Position numbers and translations under genes: made by a program
Notes under the pieces: model-generated
The model's database searches: none
Told to the model about the DNA's origin: nothing
What the model saw: only the letters and a program-made list of their open reading frames with translations
Shown here: piece after piece, positions 1 through 20,000 of the stretch
Layout of the letters: each line of letters begins with the position of its first letter
Numbering within the stretch: position 1 is the first letter of the stretch
NCBI GenBank assembly: GCA_010093815.1
Contig: ML996588.1
Source of the DNA: Pseudovirgaria hyperparasitica
Taxonomy: Eukaryota
Length of the DNA: 20,000 nucleotides
Reading direction: 5' to 3' (one strand)

Positions 1-753
1 CTTCTAACTACGTAACTAGTACTAAACGCACGCTACTAAGTAGAGCTAGAAATAAGTCTATTCTTTACTATCTATAGATATAATCTACTATCCTCTATAC
101 CTCTATAGATAGAAGCTAACTCTAGTTCCTCGCTCTCTACTAAATAAAGAGCGGAAACCTTTATAAAAAAGATAAAGAATATTACTAAGCTATATTAAGT
201 AAATATAGCGGAGGCTATCTAAAAGTAAGAGAAGTCTATAAATAGAAAGTAAACTCTAGTACTAGTATACTATATAGAAGATAAAGTATAGCTTAATTTA
301 AGAAACTATATAATAAGTTAACTAAAGAAGAACCTAGACTTAAAGCACGCGAAATATACTATAGATAAAGTTCTATTATTAGTATCTATTAGACTAAGGG
401 GACTTCCTAGTAATATCTACCTAGTATTCTATATAGATCTACTTAGACTAGCTAGCGAAGACCCTCTATCTAGATAGAAGACTAATAATAAATAACTAGA
501 CTCTATACTTATTAAGATATATAAAGAGTAGTAAATTAAAGAGATACTATATACTAGAAATAAAGGGCGAGGATAGAGAAGAGAAGTCCTAGTAAAATAG
601 GCCGGATACTATAATCTAATATAGGAACCCTTAGTAAATCTAATAGATACTACTATATTAGATAAGTTTAAATAGAAGTTTAGACCTACTAAGATAAATA
701 ATAGTCTACTAGAGTAGTAGACTATAAAGAAAAAGAAGGTATCTATCTAGTAA
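1..753 (+). pseudogene. pol: pol relic: integrase C-terminus plus chromodomain
   Basis: Frame +1 gives *LNLRNY..KKNLDLKHAKYTIDKV..LPSNIYLVFYIDLLR..EDPL, the RIP form of the IHPVFHVDLL motif. The chromodomain at ~525-690 reads E**IKEILYTRNKGRG*RREVLVK*AGYYNLI*EPL. Stops are TAG/TAA at Trp/Gln positions. Confidence 0.85.
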
Positions 754-849: not shown

Positions 850-1870
850 AGAGAGAGAACTAAATACTAAAGAAAAAGGCCTAGAGACTAGTATATTCTA
901 ATAGACCTATAGATTAGTCTAATAGAGCCCTAATACTAACGCCGGAAGAATACCGCCTATACTATAATAGAAGGTTAGTAAGAGAATTTAACTAGATTCT
1001 AGAATTAAACTTATATTTAACTCTACTAGGCTACTATATTAGTTATCTAAGTAGTTATCTAGAAGGCAACGGTACTAAAAGTATAGTTAGTAATTATTTA
1101 TCTAGAGAGTCTAAATAGTCTTATATAGGAAGTAGACTAGCTACTTATAAGGGCTATAAAGTCTTTATAGCTTTTAGAATCTAGGCGAGGTTCTTATAGA
1201 TATCTAGTCTAAACTAACTATTAGCCGGGCGTTAAAATATAGAACTAGAAGAGAAAAGAACTTACGCCCTAGTATTAGCTAACCGAGTCTATACTATATA
1301 AGTAATATAAGTAATCTCCGGCCTAAAATACTCGGTTAGTAGTTATTATAATAAGGGTTTCTAAGTTAGCTTATAGATTCTAGTAATTTACCTTTCTTAG
1401 GGTATAACGAGTATAGAAGTAACTTTAGTTTAACTAAGCGAATTAGCGGAGCCTAATATAAATAATATAGAGTCTAATACTTACTACTTAGTTAGTATAG
1501 TCTTTACTAGCTAGAGTATAGCTCTAGTAGTAGATAATATTATTTATCTATAGAACCCGAGCGTTAGTAACTAGACCCTAACTAGATAAGAAAGAAGAAT
1601 CTAATCTTATAATAGAGAAGAATAAGATTATTAAGGTCTAGAAAAATAGAAGAGAAGCTATACCTTTATACTCGGGACCCTTAAAATTATAAATAGATCT
1701 TCGTAAATAGAATATTATAAATAAGATATCTATAATATATAAATATCTATTTATATATAACTCCGGAACGTATAAATAACTCTTATTTATATACTCTTAA
1801 TAGATAAGTAAATAGTTCCGGCGTATATAATAATAGACACCCTATTAACCGAGAAGCACCTGGTAAGAGA
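850..1870 (-). pseudogene. Putative antisense multi-intron accessory gene relic in the 3' region of chromovirus #1 (ends uncertain)
   Basis: Four minus-strand GT..branch..AG candidates: 1663-1548, 1484-1434 (GTAAGT/GCTAAT/TAG), 1391-1323 (GTAAAT/ACTAAC/TAG) and 1265-1214 (GTAAGT/GCTAAT/TAG). The exons between them are 63, 42 and 57 nt, all multiples of 3. Exon 1547-1485 reads INNIIYY*SYTLASKDYTN*V, which un-RIPs to a C-x2-C-x6-C motif. Confidence 0.5.
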
Positions 1871-2007: not shown

Positions 2008-2041
2008 TAGTAAGTCTAGTAAAATTTTACTAGACTTACTA
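2008..2041. repeat. Perfect 34-bp palindrome
   Basis: TAGTAAGTCTAGTAAAA|TTTTACTAGACTTACTA; the two halves are exact reverse complements. Confidence 0.9.
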
Positions 2042-2540
2042 CACGAATATATATATTAAATCTAAGTAGCCTAGCTTATAGAGAGTACTATACACGGTAG
2101 CGATAGAGGCTACTACCGTTCTACGATAATAATTATTACTACTAGAGTAATAATAGATACTACTACGTTAGAAAGCTATTCTTAGATAGATAGCTATCTA
2201 CCTAGTACTAGAGGGATATAGATATAAAAGGAGCTACTAATATAGAAATTAAACCATCTTCTATAAATAACCTATAATAGGTTTAATAGGTGGATCCTTT
2301 TAATAGAAGGTATATACGCCACGACCTAATAGCGGATATTAAGTCTAGTTACTAAGGTCTATATTAGAGGGTGTCATATACGATAATAAGTATTACTATA
2401 AGCTAATAATAATTACTACTATAACGACTAGATATAGAAGAGCGGCTTTATTATAGGTTTTCTAGGAAGCTAGTAGAAATAAGCCGGATAACGCTTACTT
2501 ATAAGCGGTCTATAGCTAGGGTAGACTCTAGTAATAAATA

Positions 2541-2558
2541 AGCGGAGGGAGGGGGTAA
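2541..2558 (+). other. Polypurine tract of chromovirus #1
   Basis: AGCGGAGGGAGGGGGTAA directly before the LTR-like start TATTAAGGG. Confidence 0.75.
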
Positions 2559-2773
2559 TATTAAGGGTAGACCCTAGGTATACTTAACGCTAGTATACTA
2601 CGTCTACGCTACTACTCTCTCCTTACTTAATAAAGCTAAGCGAGCCCCTTTTTAATAGCGTACTCTATCTCTTATCTTAAGAAAGCCGAGTAGACTCCGG
2701 CTTTCTCCCTTATTAAACTTACTATATTCTATAAATACTCTTACGTCTATATATACATAGTATTCCTATAATA
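2559..2773 (+). repeat. 3' LTR of chromovirus #1 (~215 bp)
   Basis: Follows the PPT. The ends TATTAAGG...CCTATAATA are imperfect inverted repeats and the RIP form of TG...CA. Homology to LINE B RT (~12915 onward) starts right after. The partner LTR is not in the window. Confidence 0.65.
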
Positions 2774-3650
2774 GAGGCGAACTTTACTCCGTAGTATTTT
2801 ATCTACTAGATATATCTCTTATAGTCTTATTTAAGGCGTTTATATATTAAACTAGTATTATTATTAATAGCTAGAAGATATATATTATTAGTATATTCTA
2901 CTATCTCTATATATTATATCTCTTATAGAAGGTCTATAGTAAAGAAGAGAAAGAGAATTAGAGAGATAGTACTTCCTTATAGAATACTATATATTATCTT
3001 CTTATATTTACTTTAATATCTAGAGATATATATCTAGGTAATTCTTTTAATAAGGAAGGACTATATAAACTTTATAATCTATTTAGGTATATATCTCTTC
3101 TATAGATTATATATAAGTCTTATATAGTTTATCTTATTAAATACGCCGGCTATATTAAGGGAGAGTAATATTACTATATATTTCTACTTCTATATAGTCT
3201 AGATAACTTTAAGAATATATTAGATAGTAGTAATTAGAGAGCTTCTAGTCTTTATCTTCTAGTTTACTAGAAGAAGGTTATATTCTTATACTATAGTACT
3301 TATCTTCTTTACGATTATAGCTTTAAGTATCTTACTAAGATAGAAGAGAAGAGTAATTAGTCTCTATCCTTTTAGAGAATTAGAGTTCTTCTCTAGCTTT
3401 AGAAGTATAATAGTATAGATAGTCTAGAAGCTTTAGAGGTAGTATCTATTCTTAGTATATATCTAGAAGATAAGACTAATAAGTAGTAAGGTTATCTATA
3501 TAGTATATTTAAAGTATCTATTTAGTATTCTATCTAGTCTAGGCGCTTTATTATTTAGAAGTACTTTAATAGTATTAAGTATATCTTCTTCTATAATCTC
3601 TATAGAGATATTAACCGTATCTAGATATATATTATTATTAATATCTAATA
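2774..3650 (-). mobile_element. LINE A (Tad1-like non-LTR retrotransposon), reverse-transcriptase segment of ORF2, heavily RIPped
   Basis: Colinear with LINE B ~12915-13791 (e.g. ggcgaactttactccgt, aagaagag..agagatagtact, ttattaaa..ccggctatat). Broken at a 14-bp TSD and resumes at 17698. Confidence 0.88.
3637..3650. repeat. Left 14-bp target-site duplication of LINE B
   Basis: ATTAATATCTAATA (3637-3650) vs ATCAATATCTAATA (17698-17711): one CpA>TpA difference. Joining the two sides restores colinearity with LINE B ~13780-13830. Confidence 0.85.
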
Positions 3651-11450: not shown

Positions 11451-11468
11451 AATAATAATAATAATAAT
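11451..11468 (-). repeat. (AAT)n 3' tail of LINE B
   Basis: aataataataataataat, split from 3651-3654 by the gypsy insertion. Confidence 0.8.
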
Positions 11469-11799
11469 ATTATATAACTAGGTAGAGTAGTTCTCTATAG
11501 GCCTATGCCTCCTCTAGTCTAAGCTACTATATAAGAAGAAACCCTATAGAGAAAAACTTCCTTATATCTATAACTACATCTCGTGGAACCTCTATTTTAT
11601 CTTAAGTATATAGCTATAGAGTACGCCTATTAGCCTATAGCCTATATTACTATTATTTTATCCTTAGGTAGTATATATAGGTGCGGAGGTTATTAGTTAA
11701 GGGCTACCCTCGACTAATAATCGGGGTTCGCCCGGGGTTCTTCCGGTATATATCGGGTTACTACCGGCGTATACTAGGTCTCTTCCGGCATATATTTCC

Positions 11800-14700
11800 G
11801 GGTCCACTAGTACTAGAGGAGTAGTAGATATATAAGTATCTATCGGGAGACGTCCTTAGAGTACTTATTAAGCTATTATACGATATCTAAAGTCTTCGTA
11901 ACGTAGATAAGCTATTACCATTATATATAGAGGTTAGAGCATATAGCTAGATAGTAGCGTATTATACCTCTCCGGCCGTACGCCTTATACTATAGGGAGG
12001 TATTAGGAACGCCTCTCTTATAGATATAGTATAGAAGTCCTATAGCGCCCGTTCGGGCTTAGATAAGTATAGATACTTAGGCTTTCGTTAGCTCTTTATA
12101 TATCTATTTACTCGGTTCCTTCTATGGCCCTCGAATCTACTCTAGATATCTATTCTACTAGAAGGTCTATTAGACACGGAGTGCCTCTTTCTACTTATCT
12201 TAAGTCCACGACTATATATTTTTTATAAGTTCTTAAAGGCTCTACCGGTCTAGGAGAGCGTCCGGGTTATCTTGGACTTCTTATACTACTTAGCTAGAGT
12301 CGGCTTCTATTAAGTATCTATACCGTATTTAATTCTAGCCTATATATAGAAGTGCGTGGTAATATATGCTAATTTATACACGTAGCGCGGCGAAAGTATA
12401 TTCTACGTTTTCTATACGTTCCTATACTTATTATTTAGTGAAGTATACCACCCTCTATATCTAGTAGAAGTTATATATACTTATAACGTCTATCTCGCGT
12501 CGTAGTAGTACCGTGTTAGTAGCTTTATATATACCTAATATAAGACGGAGTATACGGTTCTATATAGATTCGAGCTTCATTCGCCTAGTCTATATAAGGG
12601 CTATATACTAGTACTCGTGTCTATACATGAAGGCGGGTCGTGCTATAGATATATATAGCTAGCGTGCCTTATCCCGGGCGGTTCTCTATATAGAGACTAT
12701 AATCTATCATATAGTAGCTTCTACCTAGAGGGCCCTAGAGACGGCGTATACTACTTATAGTCCCTATCTAAGCTTACTATCTAGTATAACTCCGAGCGCG
12801 CGTATACTTTATACTAGTAGTTTATTAAATGCGTCGATTCGGGGGCGTTATTCGCCTTCCCTAGTTACCTATTTCCCTTAACGATTAATAAAGTGCATAA
12901 GCTAGTATTTCTCCAGGGCGAACTTTACTCCGTGGTGTTTTACCCACTAGAGGCACCTCTTATAGTCCTATTCTAGTCGTCTATATGTTCGGTTAGTATT
13001 ATTATTAATAGCTAGGAGGTATATGTTATCGGCGTATCCGACTACCTCTATATACTTTATTCCTTAAAGAAGGTCTACCGTAAAGAAGAGGAATAGAATC
13101 GGAGAGATAGTACTCCCTTATAGAATGCCGTATACCGTCTCTTTATATTCGCTCTAGTACCTAGGGATATATATCTAAGTTATTCTTTCTATAAGGAATG
13201 ACTATATAAAGTATATAATCCATTCTAGTATTCGTCTTATCCGGAGGTTATAAATAAGTCTTATATAGTTTACCTTATTAAACGCTCCGGCTATATCGAG
13301 GGAGAGGAGCGATACTACCCGTCCCTATTTCTATACGGCCTAGACGACTTTAATAATATATTAGATAGCTATTATTAGGGAGCTATCTACCTTTACCTTC
13401 TAGTTTAGAGGGAGAAGATTATATTCCTATACTACGGTACTTATCTTCTTCGCTATCGTAGCCTCTAGTATCTTACCTAGGTAGAAGAGAAGGGCGATTA
13501 GTCTCTATCCCTTTAGGGAGTTAGGGCTCTTTTCTAGTTTCGGGAGTATAATAGTATAGGCGACTTAGAAGCTCTAGGGGTGGTACCCCTACGTGACGTA
13601 TACTTAGAATATATAAGTAATAAGCGGTAGGGTTACTTTTATAGTACTTTTTAGGCATCGATTTAGAATTCTATCTAGTTCGGGTACTTTATCATTTAGA
13701 AGTATCTTAATAATATTAAGTATATCCTCCTCCGTAACTTCTTTAGGGATATCTACCGCGTGTAGATATTTGGCGCCGTAAACGTCTAATAGGTCTACTA
13801 GTTCCGGGAGAGGGAACATGGCCTCCCGTAGGGCCTTAGTTTTCTTAAGGCTCGTGGAGTATATTCTCCCCTAATATATTAGGGGAGGTATAAGTGGCGG
13901 GGGTATCGGAGTATCTACGCCCTTAGCCTATTTCGCTATATACTATAGCCCTATTACGTATCGTGTCTATTAACTAGTAATTATACACTACTATTTACGC
14001 CTTTTATTATAGAGGACTTTATCGCGTTATCGTATCGCTTCCTTCTATTCTTTCTACGACTCGGGTATTCTCGTATAGTATACGCGTGTATATAGCCTTT
14101 AGGCGTCTTATCTACTTTCCTATACTTAAGGAATCCCCTTTACGTCTAGGGGCCGGTATATTCGGTATAGTATATGTTTATTTCTCGTATTCTAGTATAT
14201 TTATAGGAGTATCTATACGGCCTAGTCTATAGCTAGGTCGTTAGATATATCGACTATAGAGGGATCTAGAATCGCCGATTCCAGGTCCTTTAGGTACTTT
14301 TCCTAGTCGGTATCCTTCTATATCTATCGTCCCCGTTATTTATTCGGGGTATATACGTTTATTACGGTTTCTATATATTTATAGTTAGAATCCGTCTATA
14401 CCTGGCCTAGGCGGTAGTATTAGATCCGGTAACTAATGTACTCCGTAGCGAAGGTAAGGTTAAGCGTAGACCCGTCTTCGTCCTATTTATGTTTTTTCTA
14501 TATAACTTATTCTATAGGTATAAGTAGGTATAGAAAGTCGTGGTAGCGGGTACGTAGTTCCCTTACTCTAAGTTCTTCTCTAACTATGGCTAGGCCTCCC
14601 TACTATTAGTAGTAGAGGTTAAAGTCTCCTAGGAGGATGTATTACCCTAGTTCCGTAGTACCCTCGAGTATCTCGTCTAGTATAAGTATATATTATTAGT

Positions 14701-15010
14701 TATATATATTATATATATATAGGGGGCCTATATCTATTTATAGGTGTAGTATTATTCTAAGGTTATCGCGCTCGGTATACGACCATAATAAGAGTAGTAT
14801 TAACCTATAAATGTAGAAGAGGACTCGTCTTTCTAGTCCTAGAGGGTATATAGTATGGTATCCGGGGTGTATAGTTAGTTTACTCGTCTAGTAGTGTTTA
14901 TAGGGTTCCTAGATAGCGAGTATTATGGCCCCGGTCTCTTTAAGGAGCGTCGCCTAGTTCTCTCTTTTATATTATATGTTTACCTATATAATTTAGAGTA
15001 TATTCTAGTC
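11800..15010 (-). pseudogene. LINE B ORF2 relic: APE endonuclease, reverse transcriptase, C-terminal CCHC (ends approximate)
   Basis: APE motifs: I*VN at ~14980, LAI*EP at ~14903-14920, LLGDFNL at ~14606-14636, DSNY (DSDH) at ~14381-14392. RT motifs: KVPELDRILN (KAPGPDGIPN) at ~13660-13690, GIL*GSTISPILF at ~13091-13129, GYADN (YADD) at 13025-13039. YKAYGRRGIIRYYLAIC (CCHC) at ~11940-11980. Confidence 0.9.
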
Positions 15011-15014
15011 CCTT

Positions 15015-16322
15015 ATTAGGTACTAGGGAGTATATATACCTATATACTTATTCCTTAGAGGCGCGACTATCCTCGCGCGGTAGCGGCTTTAACTATACCT
15101 TTTAGTCATCCTATCATCTTTAGGATAGTCTACTATCCTATCTAACTACCTTCCGGAGGGGAGGTTAGGGGTATTATAAAGGAAGGGCCCGTGGTAGGTA
15201 TTATATTCTATAACTATCTTACGCCTCTTGCTTTTATCGTATAAATATATTCTATAACCTATTTACGTTTTATATACGTTAACGACCATGACGGGTATTT
15301 CCTATCGTAGTTTAAATACTATACTATATCCCTATTTCTTAGTCCGTCTCCTCGCGGTTTATAAGGGCACTCCTAGATAGCGTGGTCCCTACGGTACTAT
15401 CCGCACTTAGTCTTCTATAAGTACCTTTATATAGTATATCTATACCCTTAATAGTTAAAGTACTATATTATTATCTATACTCTATCCTATGGCTCGGCCA
15501 TAAGGAGCTCTCCTTCTACTAGAAATCCCTCCTATATAATATATTATACGAGGGCGGGGTCTCGGAGCTCCATAATTATAGTAGAGTGTTTTTTCGCCGT
15601 CGTCTTAATCGCCTATAGGTTCTTCTACTACGCTTTTATAATCTTAATCCCTGGGTATTTTCGCGTGTTAGATTATTCTATATATATAATATCCTCCGCT
15701 CCGATAGCCTATCCCTACATAGGTACTATATATACTATAATCGGGTATATAGCTACCCTAATAGACGCGCTAGGGAAGATACTATCTATCGTATTTAGAT
15801 CTCGCGAGATGTTTTACTACGTAGTATTTATTATAGTAGTAAGTACTACCCTATCTAGCGTAACTTTAGTAGCTATAACGCTCGACTATATTCCTTTCTA
15901 TTTATTAATCTTATTTATAATTTCCTTTAGGGATGCCCGTTAGACCTACGCTAGCGTGTCCTTATCCTAGATTATAATACGTATACTATATACTCTATCT
16001 ATAGTCCTAGTGGTCCTTAGTACGGTGGCTCCGGATGTTACTATAATCTAAGCCTACGTGTTAGGGCGCTTATCTTAGGATAGCTCTTCCTAGATTCTCT
16101 ATAGGCTAGCTTCTATTCGGTTAAGCCTACTACTAGGTTCCTCTCGTGGCGACTTCCTTTCTTTCTCCGTAATTCCTCTTAGGTTCTAGATAAGGTCCCG
16201 GAATATATAAAGGAGGGTCTTCTTTCCCTCCTCGGCGTCCCTCTCTACACGTATTACCTAGTATTTAATTTTATCTAGGAGGGTCTCCCCTCTCGGGGTC
16301 CCCTCGGTCTAGGTTATCTATA
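15015..16322 (-). pseudogene. LINE B ORF1 (gag-like) relic; SINE inserted near its start
   Basis: Protein-like minus frame upstream of ORF2 (TEGTPRGETLLDKIKY*VIRVERDAEEGKK...SRLNRIEASL*RI*EELS, coiled-coil-like). Assigned by position; no zinc knuckles were clearly resolved. Confidence 0.6.
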
Positions 16323-17262
16323 ATAATAATAATATTAGTATTTAACTAGGAAGAACTATATATATAGCCATATATATACTCCATAGGCTTAGGCCTCCTC
16401 TAGTATTAGCTACTATGTATATAAGAAAACCTCCTATAATTAGCTCCCTAACTAGACCCTATTACTAATCTAACCTAGCCTAGTCTAAGTCCTCGAATCC
16501 CATTAGGTGATAAACTTACTTCTTATCCTTATATTAGGCTTTTATTACTATATTAGTACCGGCTCTTAATAACGCCCTAACTAACTATAGTAGGTATTAC
16601 CTTTCTTATAATTGGGTAGGTCGCTAGGCTAGGCCTAGTCTTTTATTCCTATATTACCGTGTTTTTTTCCTATCTATAGGAATATAGCTTTGCGCCGGGT
16701 AGTAGTTATTAATTAAAATAACTAATGCCGGAGGGGGTATATATCTAATAGATCCATGCCTTAGCACTAACCCTAGCTAGGCTGAATTCGGAAATTATTC
16801 TTCGGGGCTATATAATTATCTATAGGTGGGCGGGATACTTAATTAGGTATTACCGTCTATTTCGTGGTTACCGAGCCGGAGTAAGCACGAGCTAAGCCGG
16901 ATTAGGGTAGATAAGGCCCCGGTATATAGTAAAAATTCTATGATTCGAGCTAAGCTAGTTATAGGTCTAGCTACTCTAGACGTCGCTCTACCACTTAAGG
17001 TAGCTTAGTAGGTAGCTATATTAGGTAATTCTCATTATATAATAACGGTATAGTTATTTTCATATTACCTAATGGTCGCTTAGAACTAAGTAGTTATATA
17101 ATGGTAACCTTCACGTCACGTGCTCGCTTAGCCCCGTATACTTTTTAACAGAGCGTGCGAAAACTAGTATATGAAAAGGTAGCCGTTATAGAATTCAAAC
17201 CCACGACGTTGGATGACAAACGCTTCTAGTAACGTAGTATACTACCACTACGCCACCTGGCC
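16323..17262 (-). mobile_element. tRNA-derived SINE (940 bp) with a LINE-related 3' tail
   Basis: Perfect 15-bp TSD TCTAGGTTATCTATA at 16308-16322 and 17263-17277. The tRNA-like head starts at the first base. There is an (AAT)n tail, and the ~110-bp 3' end is similar to the LINE B 3' end. No ORF. Confidence 0.88.
17180..17262 (-). promoter_or_regulatory. tRNA-like head of the SINE with Pol III A and B boxes
   Basis: GGCCAGG-TGGCGTAGTGG: the A box is at 17255-17245 and starts at tRNA position 8. GTGGGTTTGAATTCTAT: the B box is at 17201-17191 in a degenerate T-arm. The head ends GGCTA, matching the 5' GGCC acceptor stem. Confidence 0.82.
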
Positions 17263-17697
17263 TCTAGGTTATCTATAGCGCTTCGCACCCTTAGTTAGTT
17301 CCTATATTTTAGATAGGTGTCTAGCTATCTATATTAATATTACTATATAGCCGTTTCTACCGTACTAGTAGGGGTATATCCGGCGTATGCCGGGGTATTA
17401 CGATACCTAAGGCCGCCATGGTTATTAGTTAAGGGTAGCCCTTAACTAATAAAAGGGGGTCGGCGTGTCGGCGTTTATTAGATATAGTCTATACTCGTGT
17501 TATTAAAGAGTCTTCGAGTGTATATATATAGTATCTCTATATATTAGTATCGTTACGTATTATATACTACACGTACGCACGTGTATCGGAGGTTGTTATA
17601 CTCGGTATACTCTATCGTTTAATGTATGTAAATCGCTGTTTTACCCCGAATTAACTAGTTTGGTCCGTTGGGGTGTAAGAAGTTTTTTTTCCCATTA

Positions 17698-18852
17698 ATC
17701 AATATCTAATAGGTCTACTAGCTCTAGGGGGGGAAATATAACTTCTTAGAGAATCTCTATCTTTTTAGGGCTTATAGTATATATCCTTCTCTAGTATATT
17801 AGGGGAGGTATTAGTAGTAGTAGCATCGGTATATCTATACTCTTAGTCTACTTTACTATATACTATAGCTCTATAGCCTAGTATATATATTTATTAGTAA
17901 TTATATACTAGTATTTATATTATTTATTATAGAGGGTCCTATTATAAGATTAGATTATCTCTTTCTATTCCTTCTATACCTTAGTTATCTAGATATAGTA
18001 TATACGTATATATAGTCTCTAGGCTTCCCTTCTACTTTTATATATTTAAGGTATACCCCTTATATCTAGGGGCTTATATATTTAGTATAGTATATATTTA
18101 TCTCTTAAGTTTTAGAAGGCTTAAAGAAGGACTTATACGGCTCTATCTATAGCTAGACTATTAGATATATTAACTATAGAGAGATCTAGAATTACTAATT
18201 CTAGGTCCTCTCTATACTTCTTCTAGTTAGTATCTTTTTATAGCTATCTTCTCTATTATTTATTAGATATAGATATATCTATTATAGTCTCTATATATTT
18301 ATAGTTAGAGTCTATCTATATCTTACTAGAGTAGTAATATTATACTCTATAGCTTATATATTCTATAGTAAGAGTAAGGTTAAGTATAGATCCCTTCTCG
18401 TCCTTCTTATATTTCCTCTATATAATTTATCTAACTAGTATAAGAAGATATAGAAGGTTATAGTACCTTATATATAGTTCTCTTACTCTAAGCTCTTCTC
18501 TAATAACTATTAGGCCTCTCTACTATCTATAGTAGAGATTAAAATTACCTAGAAGAATATATTATTCTAGTTCTATAATACTCTTTAGTATAGTATCTAG
18601 TATAAGTAATTCTCTCTAGTTATAGATATTATAGATATAGAGAAACCCTATTTCTATCTAGAGATATAGTATTATCTAGAGATTATTCTATTCTATATAG
18701 GACTATTCTAAGAGTAGAATAGATTTATATATATAGAATAGAACTCTTCTATCTAGGTCTAGGGGATAGATAGTATAGTATTCTAGATATATTATTAGTT
18801 TATTAGTTTAGTAGTATTTATATAGCTTTTAGATAGCTATTATTATAGTATC
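17698..18852 (-). mobile_element. LINE A continued (linker and APE endonuclease part of ORF2), starting with the right TSD of LINE B
   Basis: Colinear with LINE B ~13778-14930 (aataggtctactag, attaggggaggtat, gatctagaat, gtaaggttaag). Homology stops at ~18850. Confidence 0.87.
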
Positions 18853-20000
18853 TATAAGAGTTGAAAGGGTATATATAAAAATAGATATATATAATACCCT
18901 TAGAAGGATAGGTAGTATAGAAGGTATCTTAAATAAATAAGACCAAGGGATATAATATATAGTATATAAAGTATATTTAATTAAAAAACTTAAGGAGACG
19001 ACTATCTACGGCTATAGAAAGGTCTATATATATATAATTTATATGTGTTATTATTAAGAATCGATAATATATATTAAATAGTATACTAAATACTAATAGT
19101 ATTCTATAAATATCTAAAATCATCTATAATAGTCCGTTTTAGTATACTAAGGACTAATATATTAACTAATATATTATCTCTATCTATATACTTCTAATTT
19201 CTACTTAATCTAATATAAGCTAGTACTTATAAGTTTTATATACATAATAACCTTATAATCTATTATATATATATATATAAGTTATATAGAATAAGAGTCT
19301 AGCTCTACTCTATTCTATTCTATAGAAGTACGTTCTCTAGTACTCTATAGAAGAGTTCTAGTTCTACTCTACTCTAGAGCTATTCTAGCTCTACTCTACT
19401 CTAGAGCTATTTTACCTCTACTCTACTCTATTAAAAGTTTTAAAAGGGTATATATAAAATAGATATATATAATACCCTTAGGAGGATAGGTAGTGTAGAA
19501 GGTATCTTGAATGAATAAGACCAAGGGACACAATATATAGTATATAAAGTATATTTAATTGAAAGGCTTAAAGAAACGACTATCTATGGCTATAGGAAGG
19601 TCTATATATACATAATTTACGTGCGTTATTATCAAGAATCGATAATATATATTAAATGGTATACTAAATACCAATAGTATTCTATAACTATCCGATTTAG
19701 TCCATTTTGGTACGCTAAGAGTTAATATATTAATTAATATATTACCTCTATCCATGTACTTCCGATTCCCACTTAATCTAATATAAGCTAGTACTAGCTT
19801 ATATTAATATAAGTCTCCTAGTCTATAGTCTCTAAGGAAGTTATAGAGTCTAGTCTAGTCTCTAGAGTAGAATATGTAAACTTAACCTCTACTATATCTA
19901 ATAAGTTTATATAAGGTATTTCCTTATTAGGAATAGCTTAATATTAGTAATCGATATTACTAATATTATCTACTTATATATATAAATACTCTATACTCTT
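18853..20000. repeat. Unclassified RIPped repeat element interrupting or truncating LINE A: ~360-bp direct repeats (18862-19227, 19441-19795) flanking a short tandem array
   Basis: The two copies align with one ~10-bp indel and mostly transition differences. The spacer at 19298-19430 holds tctagctctactctactctagagctat-type units. A 28-bp palindrome lies at 19779-19806. Confidence 0.6.

Follow-up and report, generated by a model that had tools for sequence, protein, structure and literature searches.

The closest system described so far is brtn, an antisense gene located between pol and the 3' LTR of Boty-like Ty3 elements of Botrytis, as cited in PMC7264820, PMC4227169, PMC5987419 and bioRxiv 2021.04.13.439636. 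Antisense ORFs are also known from plant LTR retrotransposons, namely Grande gene23, RIRE2, Retand and PvRetro13, and the available text of the same source presents the role of antisense accessory genes of LTR retrotransposons as an open question (PMC7264820). A third point of comparison is provided by the premature-stop-correction genes, which depend on restorative A-to-I editing and include PUK1, AMD1, FgRID, CHE1 and zao-1/2 (PMC11156358, PMC10776026, PMC11169179, PMC12754623).

Our locus lies in element #1 of a 20,000-nt stretch of DNA, hereafter the window. It seems fairly likely that the region is a RIP-killed accessory gene, antisense between pol and the 3' LTR, of a fungal Ty3/chromovirus clade, and that the product was a zinc-cluster regulator. 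The gene exists, its exon structure can be laid out, it is spliced in one relative, and its relatives keep it under purifying selection with six conserved Cys.

The window is RIP-mutated fungal DNA (G000:C24), and the best matches of a neighbouring host gene come from Dothideomycetes. Element #1 is a RIP-killed 7.3-kb chromovirus (Ty3/gypsy) on the + strand; a full-length sister copy measures about 7.3 kb, and the start of element #1 lies about 4.4 kb upstream of the window. The pol of the sister copy, with stops read as X, matches intact pol proteins carrying PF00078/PF17917/PF00665/PF00385 at 45-47% identity and 97-98% query coverage, and shows the chromovirus order of RT-RNaseH-integrase followed by the chromodomain. 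Pfam gave no match on window 1-720, and the chromodomain scores solely via intact relatives. The 215-nt LTRs are paired about 7.05 kb apart in L080, which together with the polypurine tract (PPT) is the arrangement of a chromovirus. The preliminary description had reported that this LTR is unlike that of the window's element #2 and that about 1.8 kb of 3' extension separates the chromodomain-bearing pol end from the PPT, and both observations were confirmed. The features around the antisense gene are as follows:

1..720, + strand: 3' end of element #1 pol (integrase tail and chromodomain), RIP-mutated
2034..2517, no strand: spacer segment with counterparts (66-72%) in repeats close to contig ends (C1, C2 and C10)
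2544..2555, + strand: polypurine tract, from its sequence and the same arrangement in relatives
2559..2773, + strand: 3' LTR of element #1, 215 nt

The distance from ATG to PPT, which includes the spacer between antisense promoter and PPT, is 1011 nt in the window and 394-717 in five relatives. About 490 nt of this spacer match, at 66-72%, the contig-end repeats L083:8500-9440, L085:8920-9340 and L087:8280-8900, and the segment 2034-2517 is absent from the intact relatives. One spacer-like repeat adjoins a decayed SNF2 and Macro-domain region (L088). The sharing with the C1, C2 and C10 repeats possibly reflects exchange between mobile elements. The spacer region also contains an inverted repeat at 1990-2059, with 35-nt arms, no spacer of its own and 80% complementarity. 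Some family-1 pieces (L093 on G000:C28, L091, L092, L089) consist of the 3' extension and LTR without adjacent pol; L093 begins at window 825, just before the end of the antisense gene. Elsewhere in the window, a third Ty3-like family occupies the minus strand at 2776-3650 and 11460-18900 as one long copy and two fragments, and element #2 is inserted beside one of these fragments; no antisense intron triads were found in 11500-17000, within the range of this third family.

A DNA search with 700-2560 returned 35 matches in G000, and the 15 pieces overlapping the gene were compared copy by copy. All examined family-1 copies in G000 are heavily RIP-mutated. Most differences between the copies are CG/TA exchanges; therefore a TA may stand for CA, TG or CG, and the TAY codons are ambiguous. 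The six cluster Cys positions read TAT or TAC in all copies examined (n=12-14 per codon), never TGY and never CGY, and no examined copy of the window family retains a Cys codon or a start codon.

A strict donor-branch-acceptor scan of 850-1870 found three triads on the minus strand and none on the plus strand. In 2000 dinucleotide shuffles of the same region the mean was 0.21 triads and 12 of 2000 reached at least three, to be read with a donor list fixed after inspection of the sequence, one of whose three donors later proved wrong. The same scan of six other window stretches (about 15 kb, both strands) gave no triads. The four antisense intron-like segments of the preliminary description are thus borne out in that minus-strand signals beat the shuffles; intact relatives raise the number to six introns and disqualify one called donor. 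Likewise, its internal exons of 63 and 57 nt are as described, but the one given as 42 nt is really 59 nt long, by the boundary that the relatives set. The donor in question, at 1391, was rejected (GCGAAT in 1 of 12 copies; the boundary is at 1374 in intact relatives). A single unspliced ORF, suggested by the lengths 63/51/42/69/57/57, all multiples of three, arose from the same wrong donor and is gone in the corrected model. An acceptor at 1860 was also rejected, CCGG standing there in 6 of the 15 copies covering the site, and the GT-like sites on either side of the TATA-like box (1671 and 1663) need not be invoked as donors.

The reading Y*SYTLASKDY in one of these exons was confirmed, but it is not the second half of the cluster as had been proposed: it is the N-terminal half, 7 codons after the start, and the second half sits in the next, 59-nt exon. 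Translated in six frames, 850-1870 contains Y-x2-Y-x6-Y 4 times; the window as a whole has 49 occurrences, or 2.45 per kb, so the Tyr motif alone is no better than chance. With so weak a motif and no Cys codon kept in any copy, a test against intact relatives was required.

When the pol of one copy was used as a query, its stops read as X, 44 proteins were obtained; the top 17, at 43-47% identity and 97-98% query coverage, were aligned, and 65 metagenome loci were retrieved with this alignment. All nine close loci with at least 900 nt of uninterrupted 3' flank (7 distinct elements) carry 3-4 antisense intron triads behind pol and 0-1 sense triads; this leaves out L098 and L105, whose flank is short, the interrupted L112/L113, and loci lacking a flank altogether. 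No antisense triad was found in the 17 of 17 distant Ty3 loci examined. The proposal that an antisense multi-intron accessory gene is a feature of the lineage is upheld by this distribution and by the six-Cys protein in the relatives. Five relatives (L099, L103, L106, L109, L110) could be modelled fully, with coding exons of 63, 59, 57 or 60, 84 and 60 nt and a further, final one; in L110 the ends of the final intron are non-canonical. L099:6241-6362 is without intron 1 and holds the six-Cys cluster in a single exon, which is an intron loss or gain inside a retrotransposon-borne gene. L097:5700-6440 (minus) carries a diverged version of the gene in which the linker joining the two halves of the cluster is longer and basic and the tail is acidic. 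In the close relatives L112/L113, an insertion that resembles a DNA transposon and exceeds 2.6 kb interrupts pol.

The lengths 63/59/57/84/60 of the coding exons are identical in the window, L103 and L106. Because the exon lengths of the relatives fit the window exactly, the motif is placed in the first half, the second coding exon measures 59 nt, and two further introns lie downstream. Compared with L103 and L106, each window exon has a RIP-compatible identity of 0.64-0.87, against 0.41-0.46 for shuffled sequence, and all six beat the shuffles against both relatives (at most 5/2000). When the exons of three relatives were slid along the window in a purine/pyrimidine alphabet, 16 of 18 landed on the predicted coordinates. 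One might suppose instead that TA-rich decay by RIP made the splice-like signals and the Tyr spacing, since chance often produces the three-Tyr motif and a called donor turned out to be such an artefact. However, this is refuted by the collinear, exon-by-exon homology with intact, spliced relatives, and its probability is practically nil.

The antisense gene in element #1 is a dead relic with 7 exons, coding from 1547 to 910 for 125 aa. All features below are on the minus strand, given from 5' to 3':

1665..1670: TATAAA, probable TATA box of a putative internal antisense promoter, in 14/14 copies
1611..1640: probable short non-coding first exon, 5' end approximate, modelled on the CAA-rich non-coding exon in relatives
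1548..1610: intron 0, 63 nt, in the 5' UTR; GT in 2/14 copies, AG in 14/14
1485..1547: coding exon 1, 63 nt, start and first cluster half (C-x2-C-x6-C in relatives)
1434..1484: intron 1, 51 nt; GT in 13/14 copies, AG in 12/13; L106 equivalent skipped in RNA run X1
1375..1433: coding exon 2, 59 nt, second, basic cluster half; equal length in L103, L106, L109 and L110
1323..1374: intron 2, 52 nt, donor dead in all copies; GT in 0/12, AG in 12/12; L106 equivalent skipped in X1
1266..1322: coding exon 3, 57 nt, predicted helix
1209..1265: intron 3, 57 nt; GT in 10/12 copies, in one of them GTGAGT
1125..1208: coding exon 4, 84 nt, predicted to form a long helix; compared with L103, RIP-compatible identity 0.87
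1168-1166: codon 74 within exon 4, TAG or TGG in relatives, sense in the window; ATA in 9/12 and GTA in 3/12 copies
1075..1124: intron 4, 50 nt, donor dead in all copies; GT in 0/12, AG in 11/12
1015..1074: coding exon 5, 60 nt
962..1014: intron 5, 53 nt; GT in 5/12 copies, AG in 12/12
910..961: coding exon 6; codon 126 is the probable stop, where L099 and L110 end as well

Relatives have TATA-like sites at -153 to -158 from the ATG (four of them), a CAA-rich non-coding exon, and then an intron ending at the ATG. Exon 1, whose first codon is ATA in 14/14 copies, has a RIP-compatible identity of 0.70 to L103 and 0.78 to L106, against about 0.44 for shuffled sequence. Splicing was seen at the RNA level in a relative, L106, rather than in the window family: the joints 6019>6068 and 6126>6185 in run X1 coincide with introns 2 and 1 of the prediction and each read CT..AC on the + strand, with one contig each at depths of 2.1 and 3.1. 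Four of the 24 listed runs containing part of the gene were examined, and the joints occur in one of these four; runs X2, X4 and X5 cover parts of the L106 gene outside the TAG discussed below and contain no listed joint.

In the relatives, the pooled pN/pS is 0.42-0.43 in the coding frame (0.42 upstream of the internal stop), demonstrating purifying selection, and this selection persists across elements that are 71-92% identical in pol, the pol tree being a quick search without bootstrap in which RIP-mutated rows sit on long branches. A profile search yielded 10 proteins with E no higher than 0.001, of which P0120 and P0127 were dropped as noise, their matches falling mostly in intron-derived columns. 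P0128, an annotated protein of 126 aa from Elasticomyces elasticus, matches the five predicted products end to end, with 45-50% identity over 124-125 residues, and P0123 of Rhynchosporium is a partial match; these two hosts are a Dothideomycete and a Leotiomycete. Alignment A2 was set aside, having misplaced second-half fragments on the first half, and no relatives were found in viral_contigs. A captured host gene carried as a passenger would explain why there are introns and an own promoter, as in cellular genes. But every locus with DNA context stands behind Ty3 pol, P0128 as a query finds no match in G000, and selection is sustained over the divergence just given, so that capture appears highly improbable.

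Zn(II)2Cys6 clusters follow the pattern C-x2-C-x6-C-x5..12-C-x2-C-x6..8-C, and those of Gal4 type have basic residues between Cys2 and Cys3; the Gal4 residues contacting DNA are in the first loop. L099, L103, L106, L109, L110 and P0128 all have the Cys spacing 2-6-10-2-6, within this pattern, and the window has TAY at all six positions. Pfam PF00172 scored 11.5 bits against a cut-off of 21 (E 0.33), below the gathering score. The 41-aa cluster alone (P0045) matched nothing in Pfam or among PDB sequences, a word search with it among longer proteins gave 8 candidates, none of which scored, its leads in the Atlas were under 0.9 at best with Atlas TM of 0.27-0.39, and its single-sequence fold was uninformative. 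Residues 7-19 align to PF00172 profile positions 19-31, and the cluster halves therefore look swapped relative to Gal4; the label "second half" was wrong by position, although the stretch in question is similar to the later half of the Gal4 profile. Basic residues of Gal4 type between Cys2 and Cys3 are missing from the first loop of all five modelled relatives, and P0128 has two Lys there. The basic residues of these relatives are instead located ahead of Cys4 and in the Cys5-Cys6 interval, and because they surround the second half, the cluster looks permuted relative to Gal4.

The structure model is of low confidence (pLDDT 57, pTM 0.33), with helices at 9-14, 30-35, 44-56 and 61-83. The best 8 Foldseek rows obtained from this low-confidence model are all Zn2Cys6 DNA-binding domains, at E 0.58 or worse, and include Pho7 and Gal4 at rmsd 1.9-2.4 A over 37-39 columns; a wide structural search gave Z up to 4.8 and generic helices only. 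The product probably acts like a small zinc-cluster factor, but we do not place it in PF00172.

The gene would be transcribed antisense from its internal TATA promoter, apart from the genomic RNA, and the introns would be kept through reverse transcription because the gene is antisense. The product of about 125 aa would have a binuclear zinc cluster with the basic half second, the reverse of Gal4, followed by probably dimerising helices, and its most likely job may be that of a nucleic-acid-binding regulator of the element's own expression or timing. Plant transposons encode anti-silencing proteins, and by analogy with these the product could be a counter-defence factor against host silencing (methylation, RNAi, RIP) rather than a timing regulator, which would suit purifying selection across the clade in fungi with strong genome defence. 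However, no similarity to such proteins appeared in Pfam, PDB sequences, the profile search or the Atlas, and the heavy RIP damage in every examined family-1 copy of G000 speaks against such protection; we regard this role as distinctly unlikely.

The regulator reading has a further aspect in the sister clade. At codon 74 or 75, a Trp position, 4 of 6 intact relatives (L099, L106, L109, L110) have an in-frame TAG; L116, being RIP-mutated, was excluded from the count. The same codon is TGG in L103, CAC in L097 and ATA or GTA in the window family, and in seven database proteins, a sample in which forms with a stop are under-represented, the residue is W (5), H (1) or C (1). The TAG-bearing four form one clade (SH-aLRT 99, quick tree) with pol 86-92% identical, and because they lie in one clade, the TAG is probably one event. 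RIP was rejected as its source, as pol has no internal stop and its 22-29 Trp and 41-49 Gln codons are intact; an alternative splice acceptor at the TAG was likewise dismissed since the frame would shift. In the 47 codons downstream, the pooled pN/pS is 0.43, against 0.97 and 1.52 in the other frames, and the third-position excess in two disjoint pairs gives p = 0.02 and 0.014 (second pairing, 0.033 and 0.29). The UAG would cut the long helix at residue 74, and a full-length product would arise solely upon bypass.

In all four TAG relatives, the A of the TAG has U at -1 and purines at +1 and +3, and it occupies the third place in a predicted loop of 7 nt closed by five Watson-Crick pairs, which is the layout of a tRNA anticodon arm. 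At 747 UA sites in five pol frames no such arm was found, and synonymous redrawing of the same peptide yields the arm in 10-20% of draws. Relatives that lack the stop keep the stem too: it occurs in L103 and in 10 of 12 family-1 copies, with a compensatory pair in both; L097, with His at this position, has no hairpin there. When G000 was searched for the hairpin pattern, 4 matches turned up, as many as in the controls (4), and none was homologous. The sole RNA contig over the TAG (run X1) is partly intronic and unspliced and shows no other letter at the site. Fungal A-to-I editing is reported to prefer such a base and hairpin context (PMC11156358, PMC11169179, PMC10776026, PMC12754623), and fruiting bodies of Botrytis or Aspergillus reportedly show no editing on a genome-wide scale (PMC11156358).

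That the antisense transcript or the RNA hairpin matters, with the protein secondary, might be argued from the exon-4 hairpin and its compensatory pair in L103 and family 1, and antisense RNA functions are among those proposed for such ORFs in the available text (PMC7264820). But the third-position-biased change, the low pN/pS and the six invariant Cys point to a protein, and synonymous redraws produce the hairpin in 10-20% of cases; we regard an RNA role as very improbable.

Upstream of the gene, L099, L106, L109 and L110 carry a doubled CTATTGT, 200-252 nt before the ATG and just upstream of the TATA-like box, which on sequence grounds is a candidate regulator site. In the family-1 copies a CTATT-like pair occurs at window 1700-1725 (minus), and the copies of the doubled motif are about 15 nt apart. 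CTATTGT resembles, without matching, the MAT1-1-1 motif or the HMG core (PMC8022922, PMC3730723). The doubled motif is confounded with the TAG clade, and stop and motif count as one event. Action of the product on the host in the sexual cycle, drive- or toxin/antidote-like, with different roles for short and long forms, would agree with this near-match in the same four elements and with the resemblance of the UAG and the selected downstream part to stop-correction genes whose full-length forms do harm outside their proper stage (PMC10776026, PMC11169179, PMC12754623). However, such a switch is not general, because the window family, L103, L097 and the seven database proteins have a sense codon, and stop and motif occur in one clade only; we find a role of this kind improbable.

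Returning to the element's own regulator, we consider it a serious possibility, somewhat short of even, that the TAG is read via host A-to-I editing. In this case the UAG would stand at the wobble position of an anticodon-like hairpin, host tRNA-type adenosine deaminases would turn it into a Trp codon, and full-length protein would be made only when edited, e.g., in the sexual stage or under stress. Restorative editing of this kind presupposes mRNA-editing machinery in the host, Tad2-Tad3-Ame1 or OLD. It is doubtful, but conceivable, that the short product is the final one and the downstream conservation a legacy; ribosomal readthrough past the TAG seems rather unlikely, and there is a small chance of some other explanation. 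Tentatively, then, the element clade may encode its own permuted antisense zinc-cluster regulator, which one sub-clade may have placed under host RNA-editing control.

The antisense gene of element #1 had also been suggested to represent the same lineage-wide feature as that of element #2, and here neither the profile nor the exon slides detected homology. The profile comparison gave E of at least 7 in 21 element-2 loci vs 2e-4 in a family-1 copy, and the exons of three relatives found no collinear match in the 3' region of element #2 (0.67-0.76, same as controls). The pol proteins of the two elements are about 35% identical, and the apparent Cys spacing in element #2, 2-11-7-2-6 as read from RIP-mutated copies, differs from 2-6-10-2-6. 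Because RIP lowers the power of these tests, there is room for remote homology, and the two antisense genes have at best a shared design.

This family offers a precise gene model, evidence of splicing from RNA, and a full-length protein of natural origin for direct assay. The sister-clade UAG predicts an A-to-G change in the transcript, or peptides past residue 74. Should this prediction hold, transposon regulation would be linked to fungal mRNA editing, possibly outside the classes known to edit; if the editing reading is true, the gene would be a transposon gene with restorative A-to-I editing as a developmental switch.

In the literature consulted, we found no report of a zinc-cluster accessory gene, nor of editing of a transposon stop codon. 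The product shares with Gal4-type Zn(II)2Cys6 domains (PF00172) the six Cys at 2-6-10-2-6, two short helices followed by longer ones, and weak fold matches to Put3, Pho7, Gal4, Hap1, Leu3 and Ppr1, whereas it stays below the Pfam cut-off, has seemingly swapped halves, and is only about 125 aa long without a middle or activation region. The four TAG-bearing relatives resemble the premature-stop-correction genes in having a TAG in frame at the position of a Trp, flanked by U at -1 and by purines at +1 and +3, as well as the predicted hairpin loop and the frame kept downstream; in contrast, those are host genes with editing seen in RNA, and ours is a retrotransposon gene with predicted editing, whose window family has no stop. 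The plant antisense ORFs are comparable in position, orientation, conservation across copies and proposed regulatory role, and Grande also has an upstream antisense promoter (PMC7264820). However, they belong to other hosts and lineages and no six-cysteine cluster is described for them, whereas the element #1 gene has six short introns. As for brtn, both are extra antisense genes at the pol-3' LTR position of a chromodomain-bearing fungal Ty3 element. The available portions of the brtn descriptions are without a zinc cluster, intron structure or internal stop, and no named BRTN was among the protein matches; the likeness is one of layout. The layout is already known from brtn; the TAG at the Trp position in the sister clade is new.
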